From an uncultured Chitinophagaceae bacterium (GTDB lineage: Bacteria; Bacteroidota; Ignavibacteria; UBA10030; UBA8401): DNA of 28,867 nucleotides. Within the stretch, counting starts at the first letter, position 1. Every line of letters starts with the position of its first letter. The position numbers were made by a program, and so were the translations under genes. Shown here piece after piece: positions 1 to 18,749 of the stretch. The stretch spans positions 2,581-31,447 of the forward strand of contig CAYXEE010000001.1 in assembly GCA_964463935.1 (NCBI GenBank). The letters run 5' to 3'. Under the pieces are notes generated by a model that was given only the letters and a program-made list of their open reading frames with translations, had not been told where the DNA came from and ran no database searches.

Positions 1-146
1 TTGTTTTTGTTCCGCTGCTTGAAACTTCTAAATTATAGTATGTAATCGGGTTAATGGTTTGCGCGGCTGTTCCATTAAATTCTATTGTTGTTACATTTGT
101 TGTTGCATCTGCGCTTGCGCCGGAAATAGAAAGCGTTCCTGCAATT
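1..146. repeat. Direct repeat, copy of 1941-2086
   Basis: Ungapped alignment by eye gives 10 mismatches in 146 nt, and the first 55 nt are identical. Confidence 0.9.
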
Positions 147-1791: not shown

Positions 1792-4700
1792 TTATGGCGC
1801 ATAGGTTAATTCGCCGTCAATGTTCAATGTTCCGCTGTTATCAATATCGTTGCGGACGGCAAGCGTTGCGCCGCTATCTACCAGCAGCGTAGCTCCGGAA
1901 ACAATACCGACATTGTTGTTTACCGTTACTGCGCCGCTTATTGTTTTTGTTCCGCTGCTTGAAACTTCTAAATTATAGTATGTAATCGGGTTAATAGTTT
2001 GCGCGATTGTTCCATTAAATTCTATTGTTGATAAATTTGTAATCGCATCTGCGCTTGCGTCGGAAATAGAAAGAGTTCCTGCAATTCTTGTTATATCCAA
2101 AGCAAATGTTTTCGCGCCGCTTCCGCTTAACGAAAGATTGTTGTAATTAAATTTTGTAATTGTTTGCGCCCCGGCTTTGTTATAATCAATTGTGCTTCCG
2201 GTTGTAACATACGTTCCGCTGTTGGGAGAAAATGTTCCTGAAATTCCGATTGTTCCGCTGTTGGCAAGCGTTACTGTGCCGGATGAATTGATTGTGAGAT
2301 TTCCGAATGATTGCGCTTCAATCGGCTGCGATGTTCCGTAAAATTCTACGGTGCTTGCCGGATTGAATGCGTAGGTAGAATAATTTGCGGGCAATCCGTT
2401 CGTTCCGCCGATTCGCAATGTTGCTCCGGCGCTTACCGATGCAGTTCCCCCAAGTGCGCTTCGGTTTGCAGTATAACTTCCCAAGTCTAATGTTCCGTTT
2501 GTAACGGTAAGATTTCCTGTAATTGTTACATTTGCGCCGAGCGTTACAGCGCCGCCGCTTGCAACAACAAGATTGTTAAATGTTCCGCCGTTAATTGTGG
2601 GATTTGATCCGTAAAAATCAACAATGCTTGCAGGATCGAATGCGTAGGTTGAATAATTTTCCGGCATTCCGTTTGTACCGCCGACTCGAAGCGTGCAAAG
2701 CGCGGCAATAGTAAATGTTCCGCCGAGAGTATTTCTATTTCCTGTGTACGTTTGTAAGTCTAATGTTCCGCCGGAAATTGTAATATCGCCAATAATTGAA
2801 GCGTTTGCTGAAAGCGTTTTTGTTCCCGCTCCGGAAATTATAAGATTATTGTACGACGGCAAATCTGAAATATTTTGCGAACTCGTACCATTATAATCTA
2901 CTGTGCTGGATGTAACAGTATATGAGTTTGAACCTTTTGTAAATGTCCCGGCAATTCCAATTGTTCCGCTGCTGGATAATGTGCGCGAACCGGAAGAAGA
3001 ACTTGTTACGTTTCCATAGTTCGCTGCTTTAATTGTTTGAGCGGCATCCGAAGCGTATATAACAGCGCTTGTTGGATTAAGAGAAATAGAAATATAATTT
3101 GTCGGGAAGGACGTGCCCGAACCTATTCCGCCAAGACTAAGCGTTGCGCTTGCATTTAGCGTTACTGTGTTTGAAGCATTTCCGGTAATTTGGAATCCCG
3201 CATCGTTAAGAGTTACGCCGGAAGCAACGGAAAGATTTCCGTTCACTGTAATTATTCCGGCAAGTTGTTTTGTTCCGCTTCCGCTGAACGACAAGTGATG
3301 ATATGTTTGCGAAGAGACTGTTTGTGCGCCGCTTGCATTGTAGTTTACCGTTCCGCCGGAAATAGTTGTTGTTCCTGATACAGCAGGAAATGTTGTAGCA
3401 GTGTTCACGGCGCCGTTTGATTGAATATAATTGTTTGTTACGGTAAGCGAATTTCCTGTTGTAATAGAAAGCGCAAGCGATGCATTATTTAAAACAACAT
3501 TGTATGCTGTTGCTGCAACATTGATTGTAATAGTATTTGCTCCGGTAAGCTCTACATTACTGTGCGTTGCCGGTACGCCGTTGGGATTCCAATTGTTTGC
3601 GCTGTTCCAATTAACTCCGTCGCCGCCGCCATCCCATGTTGTTGTTAACGGAAGTATGGTAAGATTTGAAGATGCGTTTCCATACAAACCGCCGTCGGTT
3701 ACTGTAATTGTACTTGTTTCAACTACGTTTAAAGTTGTAGTCAGCATTGTTGTTGAAACGCCGGAAGTAAAACTAACATTTGTTGTATATGAAGGAGCGC
3801 CTGCGGGTCCTGAATATGAAAATGTTTTTGCGCCGGAATATGATGGAGCCGTATTTAAATATTGATCTGTTGCTGTTATGGAAGAAATAGTAAACGGCGT
3901 TGCCGCTGTTTGATTTGCCGGCGAACCGGAATTTCCGCTTCCCGATGTAAATGTTTGTCCCGGTAATGTAATTACAAGTTTATCTATTGCGCCTGCAATT
4001 TGAGTCAACGTACCAAAGTTTGTTCCGCCGGTTACTCCAATCAATGTTGACGTTCCGGATTTTGAAATATTTCCGGAAGCAAGCGGAGCTCCGGCGGTCG
4101 GGCGAACACGAATATCCTGCCATGTTAACGAATTCGTAACTCCATTTGATGAAACGCTTGTTACCGTAAAAGTAATTTGCGTTGCAGAAACAATTACAGA
4201 GACCGAAGTACCGTCTGATTCATTGTTGATATTTTCAGAAGCAGTGCCGCTGCCGTTAATTAAAACCGTAGGAGTAATTCCACCCTGATCAAATTCAAAT
4301 CCTGACGGGGCATAAAGTATAATTGTTCCAATACCAACATTTGCGGAAGTTGCTTCTTCGTAATATGGTCCGGTAAGCGCAGTCCAATCTCCGGTACCAA
4401 AATCATCGGCAGAAATTGCATTGCCGTTTACAGCAGCGGCGATTGTAACAGAATTAATTGTTATGCTTGCGCTTGTGCCGGCTGTAACAGCTGGTCCTGC
4501 AATGCTTGTTGCGGTAATGGTTCGTGAACCGGCAGCGTTCATTGAAATAACAAAATCTTTTGTACCGCCGACAAGATCGGCATTTGAAGGAAGCGATGCC
4601 GTTCCATCGTTTGATGTAATTTGAATTGTGTTCGTTGCAGAGACAAGATTCCAATTTACATCAACAGCATTCACTGTAAAAGTAATTGGAGCGGTCGCCG

Positions 4701-7700
4701 CTTGAACCGATGGAGTTCCGGTTTTTCCTGTCGGCGAACCAGGGTCGGCAGTTTCGCCGGGAACGATTACTTGAAGTTTGTCGAGTGCATCCGGATTGAC
4801 AGGAATTGACGAGCTTGTGTTTGGAGAAGGTCCGGTTGCCGATGCAGTAATTGTTGACGCAACAGCTTTGTTCAGTGTTGCGCTTAACAAAACAGTACCA
4901 GACGACAAATTTCCTGAACCAAGCGTGTAATATGGATTATCGGTAGATAAAGTAATTAAATTTGAGCCGCTGTTGACAAAATTCCAACATGAATCAACCG
5001 AGCGAACGGTTACATTAAAACTTACTCCTGCGGTTTGAGCTGTCGAAAAAGATGTTTTTCCTACTCCGACACCGGGCGTTGCAGTTTCATTTGGTACAAG
5101 AATTTGAAGATGCGTATATCCCGCATTATTGATTGTAAGATTTGTCGGCGAGCCGAAATTGTTTCCTTCTTGAACGGAAATTGAAACTGATTCAGCTTTT
5201 CGAAGTCTTGCGGAAATATTTACAGCTACGCCCGCATTAAAAGTTATTGGATTGGAAGAATAGGCGGTATCTCCGGTCGGTCCGGAGTAAGTAAGATTTT
5301 TTGCTCCGCTGTAGCTTGTTGTAATATTTGAATATTGATCTGTTGCAACAAGCGAATCAACGACAAATTCCACGCCGGCAGTTTGTGCTGTTGCAGAACC
5401 ATTCGCGCCTATTCCAATTTTAAAATCTGTTCCCGGAAGAATGACCGCTACCTTTGACATTGCGCCGGCAACTTCAATGAGTCCGCCAAAATTTGTAACA
5501 TTGTTCGTAACGCCGGCCATTACCGAAGTACCGGATTTTGTAATTTGTCCCGAAGCAAGCGGCGAGCCGGCGGATGGACGCACGCGAATATTCTGCCAAG
5601 TTAATGAATCTCGAACGCCGTTTGAGGAAGAAGCTGTTACGGTAAAAGTTATCTGCGTAATTGTTATAGAAGTTATTGGAACAGCAGTTCCGCTTGAAAC
5701 ATTATTAATTTCTCGAGTAGAATCTCCGCTTCCGGAAATTCTTGTAATTAACACAGTCGGCGCTATGCCGGTTGTATCAAAAATAAATCCGGGCGGCGCA
5801 TTAAGAATGATTGTTCCGATTTGAACATCTCCATTTGCGCCTTCCGCATAGAAGGGTCCCGTGAGCGAAGTCCACGTTCCTGTTCCAACATTATCTGCGG
5901 AAATTGCGCCTCCGCCTGTTGCAAGTGAAATATTTGGACTGAGAGAAGATTCTCCGACTTGAAAATCTCCCAGATCGGTTAATTCTAATGCTTGAGTACT
6001 TGTGGAAAGAACATTTCCGATATTCGGCTGACTCCATGAGCCGGAATATCGTGCAATAATAAACGCCAGCGGATTGGCGCCGCCGTCCACATCCGCAGGA
6101 TTAAAATTAAATGTTGCATCAATTGTTGAATATACGGTTCCGCCGTTTGTCAGCGTCCAGTATCGTTGAGCGCTTACAGCAGGATTAATACTTGAATTTG
6201 GTAAATCGGGATGATCTGTTCCTGTTGTGCTTGCAATTACTGTTCCCGAAGATGAAACTGACGCAAAAATTAAATTGACCGGCGTATAATACGCAGCATC
6301 GCCGATTTCAAATGTAACAGCAAGAGGAGAGCCGCTTGTTGAAATTGTTTTTTCAAGATTTCCAATAACATATCCTCCGGAACCTGAAATAGATCCGAGA
6401 GCGCCGATAGAAATTTTATTTGCACCGGTTGTAATTTTCCCGGATGTGAAAGAGAGAACGCCGTTAACGGTAACATTTCCGGAAAGCGTTACGCCGAAAG
6501 AATTGTTTACCGTCATATTGTTCAACACAATAGCAGAAAGATTTTGATTCGCTGTTCCGTTGAATTCAATCGTGCTTCCTGTAACAGTGTACGAGTTTGT
6601 TCCGGCGGTAAAAGTATTTGCAACGCGAATAGTCGCGCTATTGTCTAATGTTCGGTTTCCGCTTGAACTGCTGGTAAGAGTGTAATAGTCTTTTGCGGCG
6701 ATTGTTTGATTTCCTGATCCGTTATAATTTACCGTGCTGCCTGTTGCCAGTATGCCCAGTGTTGGATTGATGTTGTTTTGATTTGTGAGTGTTGCGTTGT
6801 TAGAAACATCAATTGTTCCGGTTACAGCAAATCCTGATGGAATTGTAAAATTGCATACATTGGTACCATCGCCGACAACAATTTTTGAACTTGTGCCGGA
6901 AACCGTCCACGCCGCGCCGATGGTTGGAGCTGCATTATTGCGAATGTAATATGTTTTATTATTTGATGTAAAGTTTAACGGCGCCGTACCATTACCATCT
7001 GTTGCTGTTCCCCAGTTTGAAAGTAAATTTAAATTGCCGGTAGATTTAGAATAATAATTTGAAGGTCCTACGCCTGTAAATTCATCGGCACCGATATCGG
7101 GAGTAGAGCCGGAACGAGCGTCGCCGTCAAAATCTATTGTGTAAGAAGCAATAGCAGAACCGCCGCTTTCAATCTGCGTCAGCGTTCCGGTATCGATATG
7201 CAGAAAATCGGGGCTGTAACCGGTTGTGCTGAGCCACGTCGGATTTTCTGTTACCGAATTAATATCGCGCGGTGAAATTGTTCCTGCGGTAAACACGCCG
7301 GCGTTATAGGCTGTCATTGTCTGCGCAGAAGAAGTTCCATCGGAATAAATCAATCTGCTTGCGCTCGGCGTTCCGGCATACAATAAATTATTATTGGATG
7401 CGCTTGCATAGTTTGCCAGCGTTCCGGCAGTTCCCGCGCTTCTTCGGTAAGCGACCGTTAATCCGGCGCCGGCCGGCGTTGATGTATTAACAATAATATT
7501 GTTTCGCAGATCAAGCGCTGCTGTTGTTGAAACTGCGCTTGCGGCGTGAAATATACCGCTTGAACCAAAAGTTGCGCCGCTTGAGGAGGCATTAAGATGC
7601 ACGCTGTTGTAATACGCATTAATGTTCGAGGTTGCGCCTGTTGCTGTAATACTAATACCGCGAAGAAGATTTGTGCCGCTTGCCGCCGTGGCGCGCAAAT

Positions 7701-10700
7701 CGCCGATGATATTGTTTGAAACATTGGTAACCATTGATGCAACGGCGCCCGATACCAGTATTCCATTGACTGTTCCCGTAGTAACAGCGCTGCTGGAAGT
7801 AGAGAGATCATAAATCTTGTTGCGGTATGCGTTGTTTGTTGTTCCGGCAGAAACTGCAATACCATTGAGCAAGCCCGTTGTAACTGCGTTTGCCGTAAAT
7901 GAATACATTGTATTTTGATAGACGCTTGTTGTTGTTCCGCCGGAAACAGAAATACCGTTGACCGAGCCGGTGGTAAGCGTATTTCCTTGCAGATTATAAA
8001 TCGTATTTTGATAAACGTTCTTTGTTGTCCCCGCAGTTATTGTAATACCGTTGACTGTTGTTGTCGTTCCGCCGGTAGAAGTCAATCCGTAAATTGTATT
8101 AGAATAGATATTATCATTGCCGGCGCCGGATGTTATTCCGGTAATTGTTGCTGCGCCGGAGATTGTATTAATCGAATTATTATACGTTGCGTTATTGTTG
8201 CCGGCAAGACTCATCGCCGTAATAGCGCCTGTTCCGCCCGTCCAGTTCGTAAAGATATTATTAGAAACGCTCTTTGTTGCAGAGCCGGCGTCTGTCGAGA
8301 CCCATCCGGCAATAATTGCGGCTCCGGTAACAGTGATAGTGGAAAAATTATTGCTCCGATGATTAATAACGCTGCCGGAGGCAGAACTTGCCGCGCTGGT
8401 AAAGAGCGTTACGGTTCCGCCGGCGCCGGTTTTATTAAATGCCGTAACAATACTATTGGTATCTATCTTTTGCGCGCCATTGGAATACAATGCAACATTA
8501 TTGCTGATGAATGTTACGCTGCCTGTTGTATTCACAGTAAGATTCGTAAATGTGTTGCTGCTGATATTTTGCGATACTACAGCCGCCGCGTTGCTGATAT
8601 AAGTATGCGCGCTTGAACCGGCAACGCTGTGAGCGATACCTTGAATGTTGTTTGATTGTATCGTTAATGCGCACGAAGCGGCAGCCGTTGTAACATTAAT
8701 ACCTGTAAGCGCGCTTGCATTGGCTGCGCTGTAGGTAACAAATCCGCCGCTGCTGTTGCCAAGCTGATTGTTGATAATATTCAGCGCGCTTGTTACAGCT
8801 CCCGTGCTGGAGATTCCTGTTACTGTTCCCGTTGTATTTGTCCGGGAATGACTTCTGATAATATTGCCGGCGATATTCGCTGTTGATACTGCGGCGGAGT
8901 TTGATATACCTGTCAATGCGCCCGTGCCGGTATTAACAGCCGATAGAATATTGTTCGCAGTTATGGTAAGCGTTCCGCTGCCGCCGCCGTTAACAATGCC
9001 GCTTACGACTGAAGCGCCTGTGCCGTACGCAGTAGCATTCTGAACGGTATTTGCTGTAATGGAAATTGTTCCGGTTGCCGTATTGTTAATTCCGTTGAAT
9101 GTGCATACGCCGGCGGTTGTAGAAACAGTTCCGATAGAGACAGCGTCAATAGTATTATTATCAATCGTAAAATTACCGGCGGCGCCGGATGTCAATATTC
9201 CGTTGAATGTGTATCCGTTCGTCGCTATTCCTGTTGTAATAACATTGGTAATTGTATTTCCCTGTACCGTAACCGCGCCGGTTGAAGCAACCGCTATACC
9301 GTTGATTATAGGAATTGTACTTCCCGAAGCCGACAAGCGCGATATTGTGTTGCCGGTAACATTCACTACCGTTCCTGCCGTTACATTGATACCTGCAACC
9401 GATGCCGTTGCAATTGACAGCGAAGATGAAAGAGAATCTATCAGATTTCCATTGATAGTAACTGTGGGAGATATATTTGCGCTTGCCAATCCAATAACTA
9501 ATCCGCCTGTTCCCGTCGATATTATTGTATCTATCGTATTGCTGTTCACCGTTAGCGCGCTTGCCGTGCCGCTGGCGCCAATATTTAATGCGGTAACCGC
9601 CGCTTGTCCGGTAATTTTTGTAATGATATTATTGGAAACCGTTGATGTTCCTCCAAAACCATTAATGGTCATACCGGTAATTGCTGCGCCGCCGGTTGTC
9701 CAGTTCCTGAAAATATTTCCTGTAACTGTCTGGGTCGGATTGCCCGCGCCGGAGGCACTCCATCCGGTTATTATCGTTGCTCCTGTTGCCGTAACGTTTG
9801 AAAAATTATTGTTTCGGTGATTGATAACAGAGCCCGCCGGCGATACTGCGGCGGTAGTAAAGAATGTTATCGTCCCTCCCGCTGTTCCTTTGGTAAATGA
9901 GCCGGCTATGCTGTTGGTATCTATTTTTTGTGTTCCGTTTGAAAAGAGAGCAACGCTGTTGCTGATGAATGTTACGCTTCCGCTTGTATTAACATTCAAA
10001 TTTGTAAATGTATTACTGCTGATATTCTGCGAACGCGTAACGGCGGCGTTGTTGATATACGTATGCGCGTTTGTTCCTGCTATTGAATAGGCGATGCCTC
10101 TAATGTCGTTCGATTGAATGGTTAATGCCGATTGCGCGCTTCCTCCGGTATTGGTAATTCCAATCAACGCGCTGGAAATTGCCGCGCTGTAAGCAACCAA
10201 TCCATCGCTGCTATTACCAAGCTGGTTGTTAATAATGTTCACCGCCGATGTTACGCCGCCGGAGTTTGAAATACCGGTTACAGCGCCTGTTGCCGCTGTG
10301 CGCGTGTGACTTCGCAGTACGTTGCTGTTAATGTTCAGCGTATCTACTGCCGCCGTGTTGGATATTCCGGTGAACGCTCCTGTGCTCGGAAGCGCTGCTG
10401 AGATAATATTATTGCTGTTGATGTTGAGCGTTGATGCTATGGCAGAATTGGATATGCCGGTAAAAGCTCCGGTTCCTGTGTTTGTTCCCGAAATAATACT
10501 ATTGCTTGTAAGAGCAACTGTGCCGTTCCCTCCTGTATTGGCGATACCATTGAAGACCGATGCTGCCGCGCCATACGCAGTTGCATTCTGTACGGTGTTG
10601 CCGGTAATCGAAATTGTTCCTGTTGCTATATTGGTGATACCGTTGAACGAGCAGACGCCGGTTGTTGTTGACGGCGTTCCTATGGCAATCGCATTCGCCG

Positions 10701-13700
10701 ATGATGCGCTTCCTATCATATTGGATGCAATAGTAACATTCCCCAATGTTCCGGCGGTGTAGATACCATAGAACGTATATCCGATTGCCGCTCCGCCACC
10801 AGCGCTGATTGAACGAATGGTATCGTTCTGAATAGAAACCGTTCCCGCGCTGGTTGAATATATTCCGGTGATTACTCCCGCGGTTGTTGTTGATGTTATG
10901 GAAACCGAATCTACTCCCGGTGTTCCTCCTATGGTATTGCCGGAGGTTGTTCCGATATTAACGTTGCCTGCCAGCGCCGATATTCCTGAGAATATTCCCG
11001 GCAGAGCTCCGGCGCTTGTGGTTGATAAACTAATTCCGGCGATGATGTTTCCTTGTACGCTTGTCGCCGATGCTGTTCCTACCGTAAGTTCTATCGCTCT
11101 GAATATAGCGGCAGCCGCTCCGGCATACAAGGTAACTCCCGTTCCCGATGAATTTGCATATCCGATAATATTATTGCTTATAGCGTAGTTTACGCCCGAT
11201 GCGGTGATAATATTAATTGCGTGATGCGTAGCTGCGCCGCTTGCTGTTCTAACTGCGCTCTGGAAAAATTTATTCCCGGTAATCGTCCACGCCGAGCTGT
11301 TTGACGCTATTAAAATTCCTTTTGATGCCGCCGCTGCGCCGAAATAATCTTGTATGTTGTTGTTGCTGATTGTGATTGCGCTGTTGTCCACCGCCGACGA
11401 TGTTCCTGCTGAATATATTGCGTTGTAGGGAAGGTTGATGCCTGATGATGTTATTGTGCAACCAGTAATTACGTTGTTATCATTGCCGCTTGTACTTCCT
11501 GTGGAAAATAAAATTGTCCCCGATGTCGTGCTTATGCTCGATCCCTTGATCGTACAGTCCTGAATCGTGTTGTTTGTTGCATCGTTAATAAATCGTATCG
11601 TGCTTGCCGCCGCCGTCGCTGATGTGTTCTCGAAGGTTAAGGAATTACCGCCGGTATTCAAACCATCAATAATTACATTGTCCGCTCCGTTCAAATTAAT
11701 AAGCGGCGCTGCTGCCGATCCCGATATTGTTCGTGAAGCGCCGCCTGATGGAGAAATTGTAAGAGTGTATGTAGAGTTATCGTCATACGAAATTGCATTT
11801 AATGAAACAGTTCCCGATTCAGTTATATCGCTGGTGATATGTGCAGTAAGATTTCCCGCCAATCCTTTTGCATTGATATCAAAAAATAATCCTTGTGAAC
11901 TATTTCCGGTCAACGAAGTGTATGGTTTACCGGCGCCGACCTCTACCGTTCCGCTTAAACCAGCAAGAACAGTATAACTATTGATTGTGCCGCCGATTGG
12001 GAAAGCTCCGCTCGTTAGCGCAACGCTTGGCGGTGTTCCAAAAAAAGTTCCGCTGTTTATTCCAACAACAGGCGTAGGAAGAGTATTCTGTGCAACAACA
12101 AAATATTGTATAACATCGCCGGCTGTTACTCCGCCAAATATTAAACCGTGATCAATTGTAAATGAAAACGGACTTGTTGAATTGCTTGCTTCAACATATT
12201 TCCAACCGTTCGTTGTATTGTCATTGGTACCGGGTAATCCGTTTGTGTTTGTAGATTTTTTATACCAGACGCGAGGTTTTGTACCGGCAGTCGTATTAAC
12301 TCCGGTACCATCTGTTATGATTGCTGAAAACGTACGATTTGCAGTAGAGCTTGTATTTCCTAATACTGTATATGTAATAGAAGGTGGAACAAGACTATTT
12401 ACTACGCCTGTAAATTCATCGGCACCGATATCGGGAGTAGAGCCGGAACGAGCGTCGCCGTCAAAATCTATTGTGTAAGAAGCAATAGCAGAACCGCCGC
12501 TTTCAATCTGCGTCAGCGTTCCGGTATCGATATGCAGAAAATCGGGGCTGTAACCGGTTGTGCTGAGCCACGTCGGATTTTCTGTTACCGAATTAATATC
12601 GCGCGGTGAAATTGTTCCTGCGGTAAACACGCCGGCGTTATAGGCTGTCATTGTCTGCGCAGAAGAAGTTCCATCGGAATAAATCAATCTGCTTGCGCTC
12701 GGCGTTCCGGCATACAATAAATTATTATTGGATGCGCTTGCATAGTTTGCCAGCGTTCCGGCAGTTCCCGCGCTTCTTCGGTAAGCGACCGTTAATCCGG
12801 CGCCGGCCGGCGTTGATGTATTAACAATAATATTGTTTCGCAGATCAAGCGCTGCTGTTGTTGAAACTGCGCTTGCGGCGTGAAATATACCGCTTGAACC
12901 AAAAGTTGCGCCGCTTGAGGAGGCATTAAGATGCACGCTGTTGTAATACGCATTAATGTTCGAGGTTGCGCCTGTTGCTGTAATACTAATACCGCGAAGA
13001 AGATTTGTGCCGCTTGCCGCCGTGGCGCGCAAATCGCCGATGATATTGTTTGAAACATTGGTAACCATTGATGCAACGGCGCCCGATACCAGTATTCCAT
13101 TGACTGTTCCCGTAGTAACAGCGCTGCTGGAAGTAGAGAGATCATAAATCTTGTTGCGGTATGCGTTGTTTGTTGTTCCGGCAGAAACTGCAATACCATT
13201 GAGCAAGCCCGTTGTAACTGCGTTTGCCGTAAATGAATACATTGTATTTTGATAGACGCTTGTTGTTGTTCCGCCGGAAACAGAAATACCGTTGACCGAG
13301 CCGGTGGTAAGCGTATTTCCTTGCAGATTATAAATCGTATTTTGATAAACGTTCTTTGTTGTCCCCGCAGTTATTGTAATACCGTTGACTGTTGTTGTCG
13401 TTCCGCCGGTAGAAGTCAATCCGTAAATTGTATTAGAATAGATATTATCATTGCCGGCGCCGGATGTTATTCCGGTAATTGTTGCTGCGCCGGAGATTGT
13501 ATTAATCGAATTATTATACGTTGCGTTATTGTTGCCGGCAAGACTCATCGCCGTAATAGCGCCTGTTCCGCCCGTCCAGTTCGTAAAGATATTATTAGAA
13601 ACGCTCTTTGTTGCAGAGCCGGCGTCTGTCGAGACCCATCCGGCAATAATTGCGGCTCCGGTAACAGTGATAGTGGAAAAATTATTGCTCCGATGATTAA

Positions 13701-16700
13701 TAACGCTGCCGGAGGCAGAACTTGCCGCGCTGGTAAAGAGCGTTACGGTTCCGCCGGCGCCGGTTTTATTAAATGCCGTAACAATACTATTGGTATCTAT
13801 CTTTTGCGCGCCATTGGAATACAATGCAACATTATTGCTGATGAATGTTACGCTGCCTGTTGTATTCACAGTAAGATTCGTAAATGTGTTGCTGCTGATA
13901 TTTTGCGATACTACAGCCGCCGCGTTGCTGATATAAGTATGCGCGCTTGAACCGGCAACGCTGTGAGCGATACCTTGAATGTTGTTTGATTGTATCGTTA
14001 ATGCGCACGAAGCGGCAGCCGTTGTAACATTAATACCTGTAAGCGCGCTTGCATTGGCTGCGCTGTAGGTAACAAATCCGCCGCTGCTGTTGCCAAGCTG
14101 ATTGTTGATAATATTCAGCGCGCTTGTTACAGCTCCCGTGCTGGAGATTCCTGTTACTGTTCCCGTTGTATTTGTCCGGGAATGACTTCTGATAATATTG
14201 CCGGCGATATTCGCTGTTGATACTGCGGCGGAGTTTGATATACCTGTCAATGCGCCCGTGCCGGTATTAACAGCCGATAGAATATTGTTCGCAGTTATGG
14301 TAAGCGTTCCGCTGCCGCCGCCGTTAACAATGCCGCTTACGACTGAAGCGCCTGTGCCGTACGCAGTAGCATTCTGAACGGTATTTGCTGTAATGGAAAT
14401 TGTTCCGGTTGCCGTATTGTTAATTCCGTTGAATGTGCATACGCCGGCGGTTGTAGAAACAGTTCCGATAGAGACAGCGTCAATAGTATTATTATCAATC
14501 GTAAAATTACCGGCGGCGCCGGATGTCAATATTCCGTTGAATGTGTATCCGTTCGTCGCTATTCCTGTTGTAATAACATTGGTAATTGTATTTCCCTGTA
14601 CCGTAACCGCGCCGGTTGAAGCAACCGCTATACCGTTGATTATAGGAATTGTACTTCCCGAAGCCGACAAGCGCGATATTGTGTTGCCGGTAACATTCAC
14701 TACCGTTCCTGCCGTTACATTGATACCTGCAACCGATGCCGTTGCAATTGACAGCGAAGATGAAAGAGAATCTATCAGATTTCCATTGATAGTAACTGTG
14801 GGAGATATATTTGCGCTTGCCAATCCAATAACTAATCCGCCTGTTCCCGTCGATATTATTGTATCTATCGTATTGCTGTTCACCGTTAGCGCGCTTGCCG
14901 TGCCGCTGGCGCCAATATTTAATGCGGTAACCGCCGCTTGTCCGGTAATTTTTGTAATGATATTATTGGAAACCGTTGATGTTCCTCCAAAACCATTAAT
15001 GGTCATACCGGTAATTGCTGCGCCGCCGGTTGTCCAGTTCCTGAAAATATTTCCTGTAACTGTCTGGGTCGGATTGCCCGCGCCGGAGGCACTCCATCCG
15101 GTTATTATCGTTGCTCCTGTTGCCGTAACGTTTGAAAAATTATTGTTTCGGTGATTGATAACAGAGCCCGCCGGCGATACTGCGGCGGTAGTAAAGAATG
15201 TTATCGTCCCTCCCGCTGTTCCTTTGGTAAATGAGCCGGCTATGCTGTTGGTATCTATTTTTTGTGTTCCGTTTGAAAAGAGAGCAACGCTGTTGCTGAT
15301 GAATGTTACGCTTCCGCTTGTATTAACATTCAAATTTGTAAATGTATTACTGCTGATATTCTGCGAACGCGTAACGGCGGCGTTGTTGATATACGTATGC
15401 GCGTTTGTTCCTGCTATTGAATAGGCGATGCCTCTAATGTCGTTCGATTGAATGGTTAATGCCGATTGCGCGCTTCCTCCGGTATTGGTAATTCCAATCA
15501 ACGCGCTGGAAATTGCCGCGCTGTAAGCAACCAATCCATCGCTGCTATTACCAAGCTGGTTGTTAATAATGTTCACCGCCGATGTTACGCCGCCGGAGTT
15601 TGAAATACCGGTTACAGCGCCTGTTGCCGCTGTGCGCGTGTGACTTCGCAGTACGTTGCTGTTAATGTTCAGCGTATCTACTGCCGCCGTGTTGGATATT
15701 CCGGTGAACGCTCCTGTGCTCGGAAGCGCTGCTGAGATAATATTATTGCTGTTGATGTTGAGCGTTGATGCTATGGCAGAATTGGATATGCCGGTAAAAG
15801 CTCCGGTTCCTGTGTTTGTTCCCGAAATAATACTATTGCTTGTAAGAGCAACTGTGCCGTTCCCTCCTGTATTGGCGATACCATTGAAGACCGATGCTGC
15901 CGCGCCATACGCAGTTGCATTCTGTACGGTGTTGCCGGTAATCGAAATTGTTCCTGTTGCTATATTGGTGATACCGTTGAACGAGCAGACGCCGGTTGTT
16001 GTTGACGGCGTTCCTATGGCAATCGCATTCGCCGATGATGCGCTTCCTATCATATTGGATGCAATAGTAACATTCCCCAATGTTCCGGCGGTGTAGATAC
16101 CATAGAACGTATATCCGATTGCCGCTCCGCCACCAGCGCTGATTGAACGAATGGTATCGTTCTGAATAGAAACCGTTCCCGCGCTGGTTGAATATATTCC
16201 GGTGATTACTCCCGCGGTTGTTGTTGATGTTATGGAAACCGAATCTACTCCCGGTGTTCCTCCTATGGTATTGCCGGAGGTTGTTCCGATATTAACGTTG
16301 CCTGCCAGCGCCGATATTCCTGAGAATATTCCCGGCAGAGCTCCGGCGCTTGTGGTTGATAAACTAATTCCGGCGATGATGTTTCCTTGTACGCTTGTCG
16401 CCGATGCTGTTCCTACCGTAAGTTCTATCGCTCTGAATATAGCGGCAGCCGCTCCGGCATACAAGGTAACTCCCGTTCCCGATGAATTTGCATATCCGAT
16501 AATATTATTGCTTATAGCGTAGTTTACGCCCGATGCGGTGATAATATTAATTGCGTGATGCGTAGCTGCGCCGCTTGCTGTTCTAACTGCGCTCTGGAAA
16601 AATTTATTCCCGGTAATCGTCCACGCCGAGCTGTTTGACGCTATTAAAATTCCTTTTGATGCCGCCGCTGCGCCGAAATAATCTTGTATGTTGTTGTTGC

Positions 16701-17325
16701 TGATTGTGATTGCGCTGTTGTCCACCGCCGACGATGTTCCTGCTGAATATATTGCGTTGTAGGGAAGGTTGATGCCTGATGATGTTATTGTGCAACCAGT
16801 AATTACGTTGTTATCATTGCCGCTTGTACTTCCTGTGGAAAATAAAATTGTCCCCGATGTCGTGCTTATGCTCGATCCCTTGATCGTACAGTCCTGAATC
16901 GTGTTGTTTGTTGCATCGTTAATAAATCGTATCGTGCTTGCCGCCGCCGTCGCTGATGTGTTCTCGAAGGTTAATCCGTTCGAACCGTCTATCATCACAT
17001 TATCGGCTCCATTAAGTCTTATCAACGCCCCCGTTATCGCTCCGCTAATCGTCCACGATGATGTTGATGAAATTATCAATGATGTCCACGAACTAACGGA
17101 GGGCTGATTCAGAACCGCAGAATCGATTTCCGTTGTAGACGCAGTAATGCTAATCGCGATAGTGTTTCCTGCTTGCGCAGAATTCAAATTCAATGCATCA
17201 AATGCGGCTTTCAACGTTCCATACGTGCCGTTTGCTCCTGTTGATCCCGTAACAGTTACTTGACCGTACGCTGATGCCGCAATGACATAAACAAAATAAA
17301 ATATTTTTTTCAGTCGGTTATACAT
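1792..17325 (-). CDS. Giant (5177 aa) secreted adhesin-like surface protein with parallel beta-helix modules, Ig-like repeats and C-terminal beta-solenoid repeats
   Basis: Uninterrupted 15.5-kb ORF with signal peptide MYNRLKKIFYFVYVIAASAYG|Q and T/G/S/N-rich xIxxNxI beta-helix repeats. The DFDGDAR...PDIGADEF module end occurs twice, and about 9 repeats of the type T(V/I)(D/E)(Y/F)NG..AQTI...Y.NL..S.SGTKT lie in the C-terminal half. Confidence 0.9.
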   Translation of the reverse strand: MYNRLKKIFYFVYVIAASAYGQVTVTGSTGANGTYGTLKAAFDALNLNSAQAGNTIAISITASTTEIDSAVLNQPSVSSWTSLIISSTSSWTISGAITGALIRLNGADNVMIDGSNGLTFENTSATAAASTIRFINDATNNTIQDCTIKGSSISTTSGTILFSTGSTSGNDNNVITGCTITSSGINLPYNAIYSAGTSSAVDNSAITISNNNIQDYFGAAAASKGILIASNSSAWTITGNKFFQSAVRTASGAATHHAINIITASGVNYAISNNIIGYANSSGTGVTLYAGAAAAIFRAIELTVGTASATSVQGNIIAGISLSTTSAGALPGIFSGISALAGNVNIGTTSGNTIGGTPGVDSVSITSTTTAGVITGIYSTSAGTVSIQNDTIRSISAGGGAAIGYTFYGIYTAGTLGNVTIASNMIGSASSANAIAIGTPSTTTGVCSFNGITNIATGTISITGNTVQNATAYGAAASVFNGIANTGGNGTVALTSNSIISGTNTGTGAFTGISNSAIASTLNINSNNIISAALPSTGAFTGISNTAAVDTLNINSNVLRSHTRTAATGAVTGISNSGGVTSAVNIINNQLGNSSDGLVAYSAAISSALIGITNTGGSAQSALTIQSNDIRGIAYSIAGTNAHTYINNAAVTRSQNISSNTFTNLNVNTSGSVTFISNSVALFSNGTQKIDTNSIAGSFTKGTAGGTITFFTTAAVSPAGSVINHRNNNFSNVTATGATIITGWSASGAGNPTQTVTGNIFRNWTTGGAAITGMTINGFGGTSTVSNNIITKITGQAAVTALNIGASGTASALTVNSNTIDTIISTGTGGLVIGLASANISPTVTINGNLIDSLSSSLSIATASVAGINVTAGTVVNVTGNTISRLSASGSTIPIINGIAVASTGAVTVQGNTITNVITTGIATNGYTFNGILTSGAAGNFTIDNNTIDAVSIGTVSTTAGVCTFNGINNTATGTISITANTVQNATAYGTGASVVSGIVNGGGSGTLTITANNILSAVNTGTGALTGISNSAAVSTANIAGNIIRSHSRTNTTGTVTGISSTGAVTSALNIINNQLGNSSGGFVTYSAANASALTGINVTTAAASCALTIQSNNIQGIAHSVAGSSAHTYISNAAAVVSQNISSNTFTNLTVNTTGSVTFISNNVALYSNGAQKIDTNSIVTAFNKTGAGGTVTLFTSAASSASGSVINHRSNNFSTITVTGAAIIAGWVSTDAGSATKSVSNNIFTNWTGGTGAITAMSLAGNNNATYNNSINTISGAATITGITSGAGNDNIYSNTIYGLTSTGGTTTTVNGITITAGTTKNVYQNTIYNLQGNTLTTGSVNGISVSGGTTTSVYQNTMYSFTANAVTTGLLNGIAVSAGTTNNAYRNKIYDLSTSSSAVTTGTVNGILVSGAVASMVTNVSNNIIGDLRATAASGTNLLRGISITATGATSNINAYYNSVHLNASSSGATFGSSGIFHAASAVSTTAALDLRNNIIVNTSTPAGAGLTVAYRRSAGTAGTLANYASASNNNLLYAGTPSASRLIYSDGTSSAQTMTAYNAGVFTAGTISPRDINSVTENPTWLSTTGYSPDFLHIDTGTLTQIESGGSAIASYTIDFDGDARSGSTPDIGADEFTGVVNSLVPPSITYTVLGNTSSTANRTFSAIITDGTGVNTTAGTKPRVWYKKSTNTNGLPGTNDNTTNGWKYVEASNSTSPFSFTIDHGLIFGGVTAGDVIQYFVVAQNTLPTPVVGINSGTFFGTPPSVALTSGAFPIGGTINSYTVLAGLSGTVEVGAGKPYTSLTGNSSQGLFFDINAKGLAGNLTAHITSDITESGTVSLNAISYDDNSTYTLTISPSGGASRTISGSAAAPLINLNGADNVIIDGLNTGGNSLTFENTSATAAASTIRFINDATNNTIQDCTIKGSSISTTSGTILFSTGSTSGNDNNVITGCTITSSGINLPYNAIYSAGTSSAVDNSAITISNNNIQDYFGAAAASKGILIASNSSAWTITGNKFFQSAVRTASGAATHHAINIITASGVNYAISNNIIGYANSSGTGVTLYAGAAAAIFRAIELTVGTASATSVQGNIIAGISLSTTSAGALPGIFSGISALAGNVNIGTTSGNTIGGTPGVDSVSITSTTTAGVITGIYSTSAGTVSIQNDTIRSISAGGGAAIGYTFYGIYTAGTLGNVTIASNMIGSASSANAIAIGTPSTTTGVCSFNGITNIATGTISITGNTVQNATAYGAAASVFNGIANTGGNGTVALTSNSIISGTNTGTGAFTGISNSAIASTLNINSNNIISAALPSTGAFTGISNTAAVDTLNINSNVLRSHTRTAATGAVTGISNSGGVTSAVNIINNQLGNSSDGLVAYSAAISSALIGITNTGGSAQSALTIQSNDIRGIAYSIAGTNAHTYINNAAVTRSQNISSNTFTNLNVNTSGSVTFISNSVALFSNGTQKIDTNSIAGSFTKGTAGGTITFFTTAAVSPAGSVINHRNNNFSNVTATGATIITGWSASGAGNPTQTVTGNIFRNWTTGGAAITGMTINGFGGTSTVSNNIITKITGQAAVTALNIGASGTASALTVNSNTIDTIISTGTGGLVIGLASANISPTVTINGNLIDSLSSSLSIATASVAGINVTAGTVVNVTGNTISRLSASGSTIPIINGIAVASTGAVTVQGNTITNVITTGIATNGYTFNGILTSGAAGNFTIDNNTIDAVSIGTVSTTAGVCTFNGINNTATGTISITANTVQNATAYGTGASVVSGIVNGGGSGTLTITANNILSAVNTGTGALTGISNSAAVSTANIAGNIIRSHSRTNTTGTVTGISSTGAVTSALNIINNQLGNSSGGFVTYSAANASALTGINVTTAAASCALTIQSNNIQGIAHSVAGSSAHTYISNAAAVVSQNISSNTFTNLTVNTTGSVTFISNNVALYSNGAQKIDTNSIVTAFNKTGAGGTVTLFTSAASSASGSVINHRSNNFSTITVTGAAIIAGWVSTDAGSATKSVSNNIFTNWTGGTGAITAMSLAGNNNATYNNSINTISGAATITGITSGAGNDNIYSNTIYGLTSTGGTTTTVNGITITAGTTKNVYQNTIYNLQGNTLTTGSVNGISVSGGTTTSVYQNTMYSFTANAVTTGLLNGIAVSAGTTNNAYRNKIYDLSTSSSAVTTGTVNGILVSGAVASMVTNVSNNIIGDLRATAASGTNLLRGISITATGATSNINAYYNSVHLNASSSGATFGSSGIFHAASAVSTTAALDLRNNIIVNTSTPAGAGLTVAYRRSAGTAGTLANYASASNNNLLYAGTPSASRLIYSDGTSSAQTMTAYNAGVFTAGTISPRDINSVTENPTWLSTTGYSPDFLHIDTGTLTQIESGGSAIASYTIDFDGDARSGSTPDIGADEFTGVGPSNYYSKSTGNLNLLSNWGTATDGNGTAPLNFTSNNKTYYIRNNAAPTIGAAWTVSGTSSKIVVGDGTNVCNFTIPSGFAVTGTIDVSNNATLTNQNNINPTLGILATGSTVNYNGSGNQTIAAKDYYTLTSSSSGNRTLDNSATIRVANTFTAGTNSYTVTGSTIEFNGTANQNLSAIVLNNMTVNNSFGVTLSGNVTVNGVLSFTSGKITTGANKISIGALGSISGSGGYVIGNLEKTISTSGSPLAVTFEIGDAAYYTPVNLIFASVSSSGTVIASTTGTDHPDLPNSSINPAVSAQRYWTLTNGGTVYSTIDATFNFNPADVDGGANPLAFIIARYSGSWSQPNIGNVLSTSTQALELTDLGDFQVGESSLSPNISLATGGGAISADNVGTGTWTSLTGPFYAEGANGDVQIGTIILNAPPGFIFDTTGIAPTVLITRISGSGDSTREINNVSSGTAVPITSITITQITFTVTASSSNGVRDSLTWQNIRVRPSAGSPLASGQITKSGTSVMAGVTNNVTNFGGLIEVAGAMSKVAVILPGTDFKIGIGANGSATAQTAGVEFVVDSLVATDQYSNITTSYSGAKNLTYSGPTGDTAYSSNPITFNAGVAVNISARLRKAESVSISVQEGNNFGSPTNLTINNAGYTHLQILVPNETATPGVGVGKTSFSTAQTAGVSFNVTVRSVDSCWNFVNSGSNLITLSTDNPYYTLGSGNLSSGTVLLSATLNKAVASTITASATGPSPNTSSSIPVNPDALDKLQVIVPGETADPGSPTGKTGTPSVQAATAPITFTVNAVDVNWNLVSATNTIQITSNDGTASLPSNADLVGGTKDFVISMNAAGSRTITATSIAGPAVTAGTSASITINSVTIAAAVNGNAISADDFGTGDWTALTGPYYEEATSANVGIGTIILYAPSGFEFDQGGITPTVLINGSGTASENINNESDGTSVSVIVSATQITFTVTSVSSNGVTNSLTWQDIRVRPTAGAPLASGNISKSGTSTLIGVTGGTNFGTLTQIAGAIDKLVITLPGQTFTSGSGNSGSPANQTAATPFTISSITATDQYLNTAPSYSGAKTFSYSGPAGAPSYTTNVSFTSGVSTTMLTTTLNVVETSTITVTDGGLYGNASSNLTILPLTTTWDGGGDGVNWNSANNWNPNGVPATHSNVELTGANTITINVAATAYNVVLNNASLALSITTGNSLTVTNNYIQSNGAVNTATTFPAVSGTTTISGGTVNYNASGAQTVSSQTYHHLSFSGSGTKQLAGIITVNGNLSVASGVTLNDAGFQITGNASNTVTLNASATLSLGGIGSGTSFPTNYISISLNPTSAVIYASDAAQTIKAANYGNVTSSSSGSRTLSSSGTIGIAGTFTKGSNSYTVTSSTVDYNGTSSQNISDLPSYNNLIISGAGTKTLSANASIIGDITISGGTLDLQTYTGNRNTLGGTFTIAALCTLRVGGTNGMPENYSTYAFDPASIVDFYGSNPTINGGTFNNLVVASGGAVTLGANVTITGNLTVTNGTLDLGSYTANRSALGGTASVSAGATLRIGGTNGLPANYSTYAFNPASTVEFYGTSQPIEAQSFGNLTINSSGTVTLANSGTIGISGTFSPNSGTYVTTGSTIDYNKAGAQTITKFNYNNLSLSGSGAKTFALDITRIAGTLSISDASADAITNLSTIEFNGTIAQTINPITYYNLEVSSSGTKTISGAVTVNNNVGIVSGATLLVDSGATLAVRNDIDNSGTLNIDGELTYAP
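1941..2086. repeat. Direct repeat near the 3' end of the giant gene, copy of 1-146
   Basis: Same alignment as 1-146. It encodes IAGTLSISDASADAITNLSTIEFNGTIAQTINPITYYNLEVSSSGTKT. Confidence 0.9.
7068..11640. repeat. Intragenic direct repeat copy B (4573 bp)
   Basis: Matches 12402-16974 at a constant offset of 5334. All opposite-strand shadow ORFs, which are sensitive to synonymous changes, translate identically in both copies. Boundaries are CTACGCCTGTAAA and GAAGGTTAA. Confidence 0.95.
12402..16974. repeat. Intragenic direct repeat copy A (4573 bp)
   Basis: As for copy B. The two copies are separated by a unique, in-frame 761-bp spacer (11641-12401). Confidence 0.95.
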
Positions 17326-17533
17326 CTATATATTGTAGAACTTCAGTTATTATCAAAAATTCTTTTTTACAGCATCTAAAAAACTTTGAATTAATCATAG
17401 TAATCAAAAACAGAACCGCGTTGGCGCTGAAATTATTATACTCCTATGCGACGCTTTCGGTAGATTACCGTTGCAGACGATAATACCTAATGCGACTATC
17501 TACGATTAAAAAATAAATTTCAGATGAACTATT

Positions 17534-17764
17534 TTATGCCGCCGCAACAAATTGATCCGAAGGCGCATTAACCGAAAATGACAACGAAACATCATATCCG
17601 TAAACAGCTATAAACTCCTTAATACTTTCCTGCTTAAATTTACGATGTCCGCCGGGTGTTCTAAAACATTTCAACTTCCCTTCTTCAGCCCAGCGTTTTA
17701 CTGTAGATTTGCCGACATGAAGAATTTTGGATACATCTTCTGTGTTAAGCAATACATCGTACAT
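17534..17764 (-). CDS. Stand-alone BldC/excisionase-like (HTH_17, MerR-like) DNA-binding protein
   Basis: LLNTEDVSKILHVGKSTVKRWAEEGKLKCFRTPGGHRKF matches the BldC/Xis pattern (L.T.EVA..F.V...TV.RWA..GKL...RT.GGHRR). There is a strong AAGGAGG SD 4 nt upstream of the ATG. Confidence 0.88.
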   Translation of the reverse strand: MYDVLLNTEDVSKILHVGKSTVKRWAEEGKLKCFRTPGGHRKFKQESIKEFIAVYGYDVSLSFSVNAPSDQFVAAA

Positions 17765-17818
17765 ACTACCTCCTTATAGATTGTGAATAAAATTTAGAGT
17801 AAATTTTTAAAATTATAG

Positions 17819-17846
17819 TTTTCATAAACATTGTAACTTATGAAAA
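17819..17846. promoter_or_regulatory. Palindromic operator-like site
   Basis: TTTTCATAA-N10-TTATGAAAA, 9-bp perfect arms, about 55 bp upstream of the HTH gene. The AT-rich context lowers its significance. Confidence 0.4.
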
Positions 17847-17861
17847 TAATTAAATTCTCCG

Positions 17862-17897
17862 TTATTGGTCGTTATAGTCTTTTTAGTTGCTTTGGTC
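17862..17897. promoter_or_regulatory. Four phased 9-bp direct repeats, candidate binding array for the BldC-like protein
   Basis: TTATTGGTC / GTTATAGTC / TTTTTAGTT / GCTTTGGTC, with GT(C/T) at 17868, 17877, 17886 and 17895. Confidence 0.5.
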
Positions 17898-17921
17898 TAA
17901 TTTAACTATTTGACTGCTAAA

Positions 17922-17943: not shown

Positions 17944-18123
17944 TAGAGCATTCTAATGAAACTTAGGGAGTTCTAATAATTCATCTTTTGTTAGAAATGC
18001 GGAAAAAATGGTTTCCAACTGAAGTTACCAATCAATAAATTCTATTTGCCGTCGTTTTTTTTGTGGTGAATTATTCTAATTTATTTTGTGTTAATCGTTA
18101 TAGAACGATTGAAAGGAAGAACA

Positions 18124-18201
18124 ATGAAAACTCTAATAGCGATTTTTTTAGTCGGTTTTCTGCTCTTTTCACAAAACAAGGTTGCGAAAAAGGAAAAATA
18201 A
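18124..18201 (+). CDS. 25-aa signal-peptide-like ORF, out of frame with and overlapping (TAATG) msrA
   Basis: [25 protein letters not shown], preceded by an AAGGAAG SD-like motif. A -1 shift joins it to the msrA frame. Confidence 0.55.
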
Positions 18202-18749
18202 TGGAAACAACATACGAAATTGTAACGCTCGGAAACGGCTGTTTTTGGTGCACAGAGGCAATTTTTCAACGGCTTGAAGGCGTAATAAAAGTAGAATCCG
18301 GTTATTCCGGCGGAACTGTTGCAAATCCAACGTATGAACAAGTTTGCTCCGGTACAACCGGACACGCAGAAGTTCTTCAAATAACATTCAATCCAAAAAT
18401 TATTTCGTTCAAAGAAATTCTTGATGTGTTCTGGAAAACTCACGATCCGACCACGTTAAATAGACAAGGAAACGATGTCGGCACACAGTATCGCTCGGCA
18501 ATTTTTTATCATTCAGAAAAACAAAAGAAAATTGCAGAAGAATACAAAAAAGAACTTGAAGCAAAGAAAATTTGGGACGATCCGATTGTTACGGAAATTA
18601 CGCCGTTCTTAAAATTTTATTCGGCTGAAAATTATCACCAAAATTACTATAATAGTAACCAATACCAGCCGTACTGTATGCTGGTGATAAATCCGAAACT
18701 GAAAAAATTTCAAAAAGAGTTTCAGAACAAGCTGAAAAAAGAAAAATGA
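18201..18749 (+). CDS. msrA: Peptide-methionine (S)-S-oxide reductase MsrA
   Basis: GCFWCTE active site plus [26 protein letters not shown] and AE.YHQNYY motifs. The ATG at 18201 has an AGGA SD; the longer ORF-track start at 18063 is unlikely. Confidence 0.97.

Follow-up and report, generated by a model that had tools for sequence, protein, structure and literature searches.

As far as we are aware, BldC is the sole member of its protein family with a published DNA-binding mechanism. BldC of Streptomyces venezuelae and Streptomyces coelicolor (68 aa; structures 6AMA and 6AMK) is a stand-alone MerR-like winged helix that carries neither an effector domain nor a coiled coil; one protomer occupies each 9-bp site, and direct repeats of the consensus AATTXXXX(C) are bound head-to-tail (PMC5859096). 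BldC His46 reads a narrowed A/T minor groove and Arg30 a C-G pair, and the substitutions E16R, G44E, H46E and R30A weaken or abolish binding (PMC5859096). Here we describe a 76-aa helix-turn-helix (HTH) protein, together with the array of 9-bp direct repeats ahead of its gene, in a window of 28,867 nucleotides (the whole stretch of DNA that was analysed: contig CAYXEE010000001.1, positions 2,581 to 31,447, forward strand) from an uncultured Chitinophagaceae bacterium (GCA_964463935.1). We propose that this protein is a sensor-less, autoregulated BldC-type regulator that has its own upstream 9-bp array as its target and derives from B12-type regulators, a reading to which we assign a probability of about 70%.

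Two described systems with a B12-type domain also bear on this locus. The CarH operator consists of 11-bp repeats (nnnnTnnACAn), on which a B12-dependent tetramer places the heads (PMC9304148). CarH and LitR proteins (Thermus thermophilus, Bacillus megaterium and Myxococcus; 5C8D-F) share with the 76-aa protein a MerR-type winged helix and the RTPGGHR wing motif, and CarH acts as a repressor on tandem direct repeats overlapping its own or a target promoter. They differ in that the period in the window is 9 rather than 11 bp, the 76-aa protein lacks a sensor or oligomerisation domain, and CarH is a weaker structural match to it than BldC. The closest solved sequence relative of the 76-aa head is CtMerR of Chloracidobacterium thermophilum (8JBS/8JBT; E 2.3e-9), the head of which is unlike that of CarH, implying a different DNA site (PMC11796333); we found no passage describing the CtMerR DNA site in PMC11796333. 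Fused relatives of CtMerR type in the lineage of the window (for example loci L018, L002 and L139) are 55-65% identical over the head and have the same 9-bp arrays, whereas the 76-aa protein is entirely without the B12-type domain. A literature search found no paper that brings BldC together with B12, photoreceptor and MerR.

The regulator gene and its upstream region comprise the following features.

17534 to 17764, minus strand: gene for the stand-alone winged-helix protein (P0001), 76 aa, from the list of open reading frames (ORFs) and its translation; stop codon at 17534-17536.
17769 to 17775, minus strand: Shine-Dalgarno sequence AAGGAGG, 4 nt before the ATG, from the sequence and alignment A3.
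17862 to 17897, minus strand: four core 9-bp direct-repeat units forming a putative operator, which spans -133 to -98 relative to the ATG, from the family matrix and alignment A3.
17898 to 17915, minus strand: two weaker in-register units, AGTCAAATA and GTTAAATTA, extending the array upstream, with unit scores of 2.5 and 2.1 bits.

These were placed against three kinds of material. The organism's own assembly is a metagenome-assembled genome (MAG) of 522 contigs and 5.7 Mb, 86.7% complete. Two orthologous loci, L111 (from a GTDB MAG) and L031, were taken with their flanks, and the upstream regions of the window, L111 and L031 form alignment A3; alignment A1 holds 20 protein sequences. The family operator set was drawn from upstream of genes encoding this HTH head, both fused and stand-alone, and comprises 121 non-identical regions, and a family hidden Markov model (HMM) and a B12-domain alignment were built from 94 fused relatives.

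The comparisons support a likeness of the 76-aa protein to BldC in its fold, its size and its key residues. Its AlphaFold2 model runs strand-helix-helix-wing-helix, with a confident core at residues 5-55 (predicted local distance difference test, pLDDT, >90 at 11-50) and a disordered tail at 61-76 (pLDDT <50). BldC chains of the BldC-DNA complexes 6ama/6amk take Foldseek ranks 1, 2 and 4-8, with template modelling (TM) scores (target) of 0.79-0.89 and root-mean-square deviations of 1.1-1.7 Å over 50-53 columns, which makes BldC (37-38% identical) the best structural match; these complexes outrank RacA, classical MerR proteins and CarH. In sequence, Pfam HTH_17/MerR covers residues 5-53 (HTH_17, E 2.6e-13) with no other Pfam domain, and the best PDB match is the CtMerR head 8jbs (residues 7-52, E 2.3e-9), with BldC 6ama/6amk at E about 2e-7. 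The best NCBIfam model is HTH_BldC (NF033787), which the protein matches at 61.2 bits, under the cut-off of 77; fused relatives score 54-56 bits on the same model. The description of the protein as BldC-like in the earlier note thus stands for fold, size and key residues and fails for strict membership: since 61.2 bits falls short of 77, the protein would work like BldC without being a strict member of its family.

The residues on which BldC depends are largely kept. In a HMMER alignment, with numbering via the residue names in PMC5859096, BldC Glu16, Arg30, Gly44 and His46 correspond to Asp10, Arg24, Gly38 and His40, so that Glu16 is conservatively replaced by Asp; BldC Trp31, Thr27, Arg47 and Lys36 are also kept. 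In A1, every sequence has Arg24, Trp25, Thr21, Gly38 and His40, and conservation of Lys30 and Arg41 is at least 90%; Asp10 lies outside the invariant and near-invariant columns. The protein differs from BldC in its origin in a Bacteroidota/Ignavibacteria-type MAG, in a 16-residue disordered tail ending hydrophobic-Ala-Ala, and in its nearest relatives, which are heads fused to a B12-type domain rather than actinobacterial BldC. A BldC-like protein outside Actinobacteria, as proposed in the earlier note, is in itself nothing new: BldC homologs, many and of unknown roles, are already described across bacteria (PMC5859096).

The four core units lie where they had been proposed, about 100-130 bp upstream of the start codon. 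They read TTATTGGTC/GTTATAGTC/TTTTTAGTT/GCTTTGGTC on the plus strand and GACCAAAGC/AACTAAAAA/GACTATAAC/GACCAATAA in the orientation of the gene. Corresponding arrays occur in both orthologs, at 5891-5935 in L111 (GCCCAAAAC GTCCATAAA GCCCAATCG GTCAAAAAA) and at 520-555 in L031 (GGTCAAAAC GCCCAAAGC GACCACAAA GCCCAAACG), and the three align in register and at an equivalent place in A3. Scored with a matrix trained solely on the upstream regions of fused relatives, leaving out the window and its orthologs, the arrays reach 26.2 bits in L031 and 26.1 bits in L111; the window array reaches 16.4 bits at an unchanged position. In the 5.7-Mb genome, both strands included, 8 sites score at least 16.4 bits, which corresponds to about 6e-4 expected in a 436-nt upstream region on one strand.

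Across the 121 upstream regions, the same element recurs with a fixed phase and strand. A period of 9 is the most frequent best period (46/121). On the sense strand, but not on the antisense strand, the spacing of [CT]CA[AT]A anchors shows sharp maxima at 9, 18 and 27. Sense-strand arrays of 4 units score beyond the 99th percentile of shuffles in 73/121 regions; antisense-strand arrays do so in 1/121. A typical family array consists of 4 units and stops about 49 nt ahead of the ATG, and the arrays accompany the HTH family through varied neighbourhoods in several phyla, always on the sense strand of the gene. The refined matrix gives the unit consensus GnnCAWAAC, in which G1 and C4 are conserved as strongly as the A-tract; AACGCTCA is the junction of two family units. 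The consensus can also be read as AWAA-CGNN-C, beside AATT-CGGA/T-C for BldC, whose optimal site AATT-CGGA-C it closely resembles: at the level of sequence alone, both are 9-bp direct repeats of an A/T-rich tetrad, four bases and a C, and the likeness extends to a variable number of units, 2 to 7. A very clean array precedes the gene for the 294-aa fused regulator of L139 (6001-6885): GACCAAACA GACCAAACC GCCCAATAC GACCAAAGA.

Judged from the window alone, the array is suggestive at best, and the verdict varies with the measure. Tandem Repeats Finder reports nothing at this position. For the plain self-match, 16/27, dinucleotide shuffles do as well in 14% of cases when the period is fixed at 9 and in 68% when any period from 6 to 12 is allowed. 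A composition-aware likelihood that weights the rare G and C gives 5.17 bits per column, a value that 0.05% of shuffles attain at period 9 and 2.8% attain when periods from 6 to 12 are all allowed; among 463 intergenic regions of the same genome, 4 equal this score at period 9 and 49 at any period. Periodicity above background, a point on which the earlier note let its reading turn, is seen with the likelihood score and the comparative evidence and not with plain self-match; conservation of the 9-bp period upstream of homologs, which the note named as a check, is borne out by the family and ortholog arrays. That the array is real follows from the comparison with orthologous and family regions, which is the decisive evidence. 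The element itself is well defined, the window array being, by its sequence, a degenerate copy of it.

Autoregulation of the 76-aa protein gene is, on this sequence evidence, well supported. Head-to-tail binding at the gene's own promoter is the best and most likely reading because the array is conserved, recurs ahead of the genes of relatives, has the 9-bp spacing of BldC and is locked in orientation to the gene; the autoregulation proposed in the earlier note thereby gains an operator-like element. DNA binding by the 76-aa protein is predicted. Its target would be 4-6 head-to-tail 9-bp repeats that precede the start codon of its gene by 98-151 bp, with one protomer per 9-bp unit by analogy with BldC. 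The wing and His40 would enter the A/T-rich minor groove, recognition-helix Arg24 would read the conserved C-G pair, and adjacent protomers would pack head-to-tail into a short filament. Repression would be likelier than activation. BldC is pleiotropic, in contrast to the 76-aa protein, for which the only strong intergenic site found lies at its own gene.

A wider regulon in the same genome was considered and set aside: the few higher-scoring arrays, on C376, C54, C369 and C486, fall within coding sequence, with scores in the range that the maxima of shuffled genomes also cover. The strongest array of the assembly, on C376 at about 2782-2817 (minus strand; GCTCAATAT GCTCATTGC GTACAAAAA GTTCAAAAT), scores about 25 bits, above those maxima; it lies close to the contig end, within an ORF of 79 codons encoded on the opposite strand, and no regulated gene is evident there.

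Several points weigh against autoregulation through this array. Some residues that make contacts or interfaces in BldC are changed in the 76-aa protein (Lys26 to Ser20, Arg22 to His16, Lys33 to Glu27 and Leu43 to Pro37). No array of the three orthologs is as degenerate as that of the window (16-18 versus 26-28 bits), which also lies about 30-50 nt farther from the ATG; block-shuffled genomes peak at 17.9-23.2 bits, so that the window array would not stand out in a genome-wide scan. The stand-alone loci compared at the DNA level number three: the window, L111 and L031. The family matrix was trained on regions that it also scores; the period, anchor-spacing and left-out tests are independent of it. 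No promoter was located, a sigma-70 scan falling under shuffle expectation. The giant gene downstream, 208 bp away compared with 15-150 bp in most relatives, may have its own promoter.

Two motifs, TAnnTTTG and TAWAAT, were likewise not positionally peaked in the family upstream regions. Between the array and the ATG, the window contains a perfect 9-nt inverted repeat, TTTTCATAA-N10-TTATGAAAA (17819-17846, about -82 to -55), perhaps the site of a second regulator or a portion of the promoter; in L111, an imperfect inverted repeat (CCGAGAC/GTTTCGG) directly follows the array.

The alternative that survives best accepts the array as real and has it bound by another factor, such as a response regulator working on direct repeats, or acting as DNA curved by phased A-tracts or an UP-like element, with the HTH protein acting elsewhere. 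The units are rich in A (CAWAA), DNA can be bent by phased A-tracts, and the intergenic region of the array also serves msrA, for peptide methionine sulfoxide reductase, which is transcribed divergently. Yet the array tracks the HTH family across neighbourhoods and phyla, always on the sense strand; it is closer to the HTH gene than to msrA, a neighbour that the majority of the family lacks. Its 9-bp period is the footprint of BldC, not the 10-11 bp of curvature or the 11 bp of OmpR/PhoB-type regulators and CarH, and G1 and C4 are conserved on a par with the A-tract. We consider this alternative distinctly unlikely.

A second alternative concerns the origin of the 76-aa gene, which could be a decaying, non-functional remnant of a fused regulator of about 300 aa, its array a fossil. 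The best matches in related genomes are indeed the N-terminal heads of proteins of about 300 aa that carry B12-binding_2 and B12-binding domains, at sub-threshold Pfam scores, in the CarH/CtMerR architecture, and fused proteins are also its closest relatives in reference genomes. The window protein is the shortest of its clade (76 versus 90-93 aa), its array is the weakest of the orthologs, and tblastn ran weakly past its stop codon into the next frame. The gene is single-copy in its own assembly, where no fused paralog was found and a query with the L139 domain returned no B12-type domain or split partner (assembly 86.7% complete). Against decay stand at least 16 distinct stand-alone homologs from a protein-database search (82-93 aa, 54-71% identity) with an intact HTH and C-terminal motif; in a tree of the heads, from a short alignment and of low resolution, the stand-alone proteins form one monophyletic clade. 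The ratio of non-synonymous to synonymous substitution rates (dN/dS) between the two stand-alone homologs L111 and L031 is 0.19, and because this indicates purifying selection, the clade would be maintained rather than decaying. In the window itself, the DNA-contact residues, the start codon and the strong Shine-Dalgarno sequence are intact; (A/T)GGAGG is kept in L111 and L031 (A3).

Recent truncation in place was also rejected. The HMM from 94 sequences is empty beyond position 68 despite the weak tblastn extension, and it detects no remnant of a B12-type domain after the stop codon in any frame of 17200-17800; the domain loss would therefore be old. The C-terminal motif and the msrA synteny, both common to the 90-aa orthologs, further rule out a recent event. 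In keeping with an old loss, the C-terminal motif of the stand-alone proteins corresponds in alignment to the place where the helical bundle begins in the fused ones (SDEAIIKRI...). A decaying remnant is thus very unlikely, and the autoregulated BldC-type protein, with its ancestry among fused regulators, remains the reading that we prefer.

The stand-alone clade appears to descend from these regulators of about 300 aa with a head and a B12-type domain. In the tree it adjoins fused regulators that have an msrA neighbour (L003, L069 and L128) or a homolog of the giant protein (L139). The clade would have kept the operator and gained a hydrophobic-Ala-Ala C-terminus. The cobalt-ligand position of the fused relatives holds His in 18/94, Asn in 37, Asp in 13 and Arg in 11, the msrA-linked ones having Asn, and the signature W-x(7-11)-[ED]H occurs in 12/94. 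Going by these sequences, most of the lineage's fused regulators may bind cobalamin in an unusual way or not at all. Most fused relatives being without the cobalt-ligand histidine, it should not be taken for granted that regulators of this lineage have light or B12 as input.

Xis proteins and recombination directionality factors (for example phage lambda or Pukovnik Xis, RdfS) are winged helices of small size as well, and they too assemble head-to-tail on direct repeats. That the 76-aa protein is such an excisionase of a mobile element, with the repeats as arm-type sites, is highly improbable: it matches the 'excisionase family DNA-binding' domain model TIGR01764 (38.6 bits, cut-off 28.8) and Pukovnik Xis is among its weaker structural matches, but no integrase adjoins the gene, there is no mobile-element context, msrA and a secreted-protein gene stay its chromosomal neighbours in divergent genomes, the arrays lie at promoter-like distances from the family's own genes, and the nearest relatives are transcription regulators with a sensor-type domain.

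The regulator gene stands between two neighbours and a short gap.

1792 to 17325, minus strand: gene for a 5177-aa secreted repeat protein, a putative surface protein or adhesin, from the ORF and its signal-peptide-like N-terminus.
17326 to 17533, minus strand: gap of 208 bp between regulator and giant gene, covered by array, terminator and six-frame HMM scans.
18201 to 18749, plus strand: msrA, for peptide methionine sulfoxide reductase, the divergent neighbour (Pfam PMSR, E 7e-70).

The co-oriented 76-aa HTH gene 208 bp upstream of the giant gene matches in its coordinates what had been described. The name 'giant adhesin' does not carry over: it was a reading of composition, and the protein has just a sub-threshold Pfam Beta_helix match (E 1.8e-4). 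The proposal that the regulator controls this gene rests on gene order, and a second operator ahead of the giant gene was rejected, the scan having found no array on either strand of 17326-17533 (shuffle p 0.3-0.7). The terminator scan found 0 terminator-like hairpins in the gap. With neither an array nor a hairpin there, any control of the giant gene would run via read-through from the regulated promoter, and the regulator would set the level of any such transcript.

The order msrA, array, HTH gene and secreted-protein gene is common to the window, L111 and L031, with the secreted-protein gene 60-80 bp downstream of the regulator in L111 and L031. More widely, a co-oriented gene with a signal-peptide-like start lies within 400 nt downstream in 63/86 Bacteroidota-type loci, compared with 93/210 control ORFs, a lenient control. 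In L139, a homolog of the N-terminus of the giant protein (gene 6944-7753) begins 58 bp after the fused regulator. A few protein classes recur among the downstream genes, one being the AGTxAGT class of 600-670 aa at no fewer than 30 loci. Proteins of this class start ...AAGTRAGT.ITS.A.V.Y.D... (DUF11-like by eye), and the pairing was seen at L036, L042, L044, L046, L053, L074, L076-L078, L143, L147, L154, L155 and others. Photolyase-like or RibA-like genes take the downstream position instead at loci of Myxococcota and Acidobacteriota type.

On the other side, the msrA neighbour is also present in L111 (Pfam PMSR, E 2.4e-69), and the GCFWC motif lies divergent from the regulator in L031, L003, L069, L073 and L128. 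The signal peptide of the window msrA is encoded by a separate 25-codon ORF (18125-18202), the stop of which overlaps the msrA ATG, whereas in L111 a single ORF of 207 aa (5037-5660) encodes both the signal peptide and MsrA in frame; the difference points to a frameshift or an assembly error in the window. Near the msrA start, A3 columns 120-165 contain a block (AATAAC ... AAAATTCTCACAAAA) in L111 (about 5700-5740) and L031 (about 270-300), looser in the window (about 18060-18100), which is possibly the msrA promoter or leader.

One further feature lies at the end of the regulator gene.

17537 to 17557, minus strand: codons of the tail SDQFVAAA, from alignment A1; disordered in the model.

The VAAA ending remarked on earlier is present, and in A1 the window tail (...SDQFVAAA*) matches the ...DQxMVAA end of the 90-aa orthologs, most stand-alone homologs ending in this way. 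Endings of the hydrophobic-Ala-Ala type occur in 0.29% of long ORFs in the same genome. The transfer-messenger RNA (tmRNA) of this organism was not found in the assembly and the tags of relatives were compared; those of six relatives end in YALAA. Judged by its residues, the conserved tail resembles the lineage's ssrA tag, and that it serves as a ClpXP-type degron is a reasonable hypothesis. A more far-reaching proposal, which we think unlikely, is that in a whole clade of Bacteroidota/Ignavibacteria-type bacteria a sensor-less BldC-like filament former evolved from a B12-type regulator, a conserved ssrA-like tail (…MVAA/…VAAA) taking the place of the lost ligand domain as regulatory input, such that protease capacity would set operator occupancy and, through it, expression of giant surface proteins. 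If this reading of the tail were true, regulation would depend on how much protease capacity is available and not on light or a ligand.

The practical value of these results is modest. They supply a concrete candidate protein-operator pair outside Actinobacteria, and the 9-bp mode of BldC appears to be the DNA-recognition mode of CtMerR-like heads with a B12-type domain. At this locus, the sensor domain would have been lost and the operator kept. The systematic placement of such regulators in this lineage ahead of genes for secreted or surface proteins suggests an unstudied form of surface control in uncultured Bacteroidota/Ignavibacteria-type bacteria.

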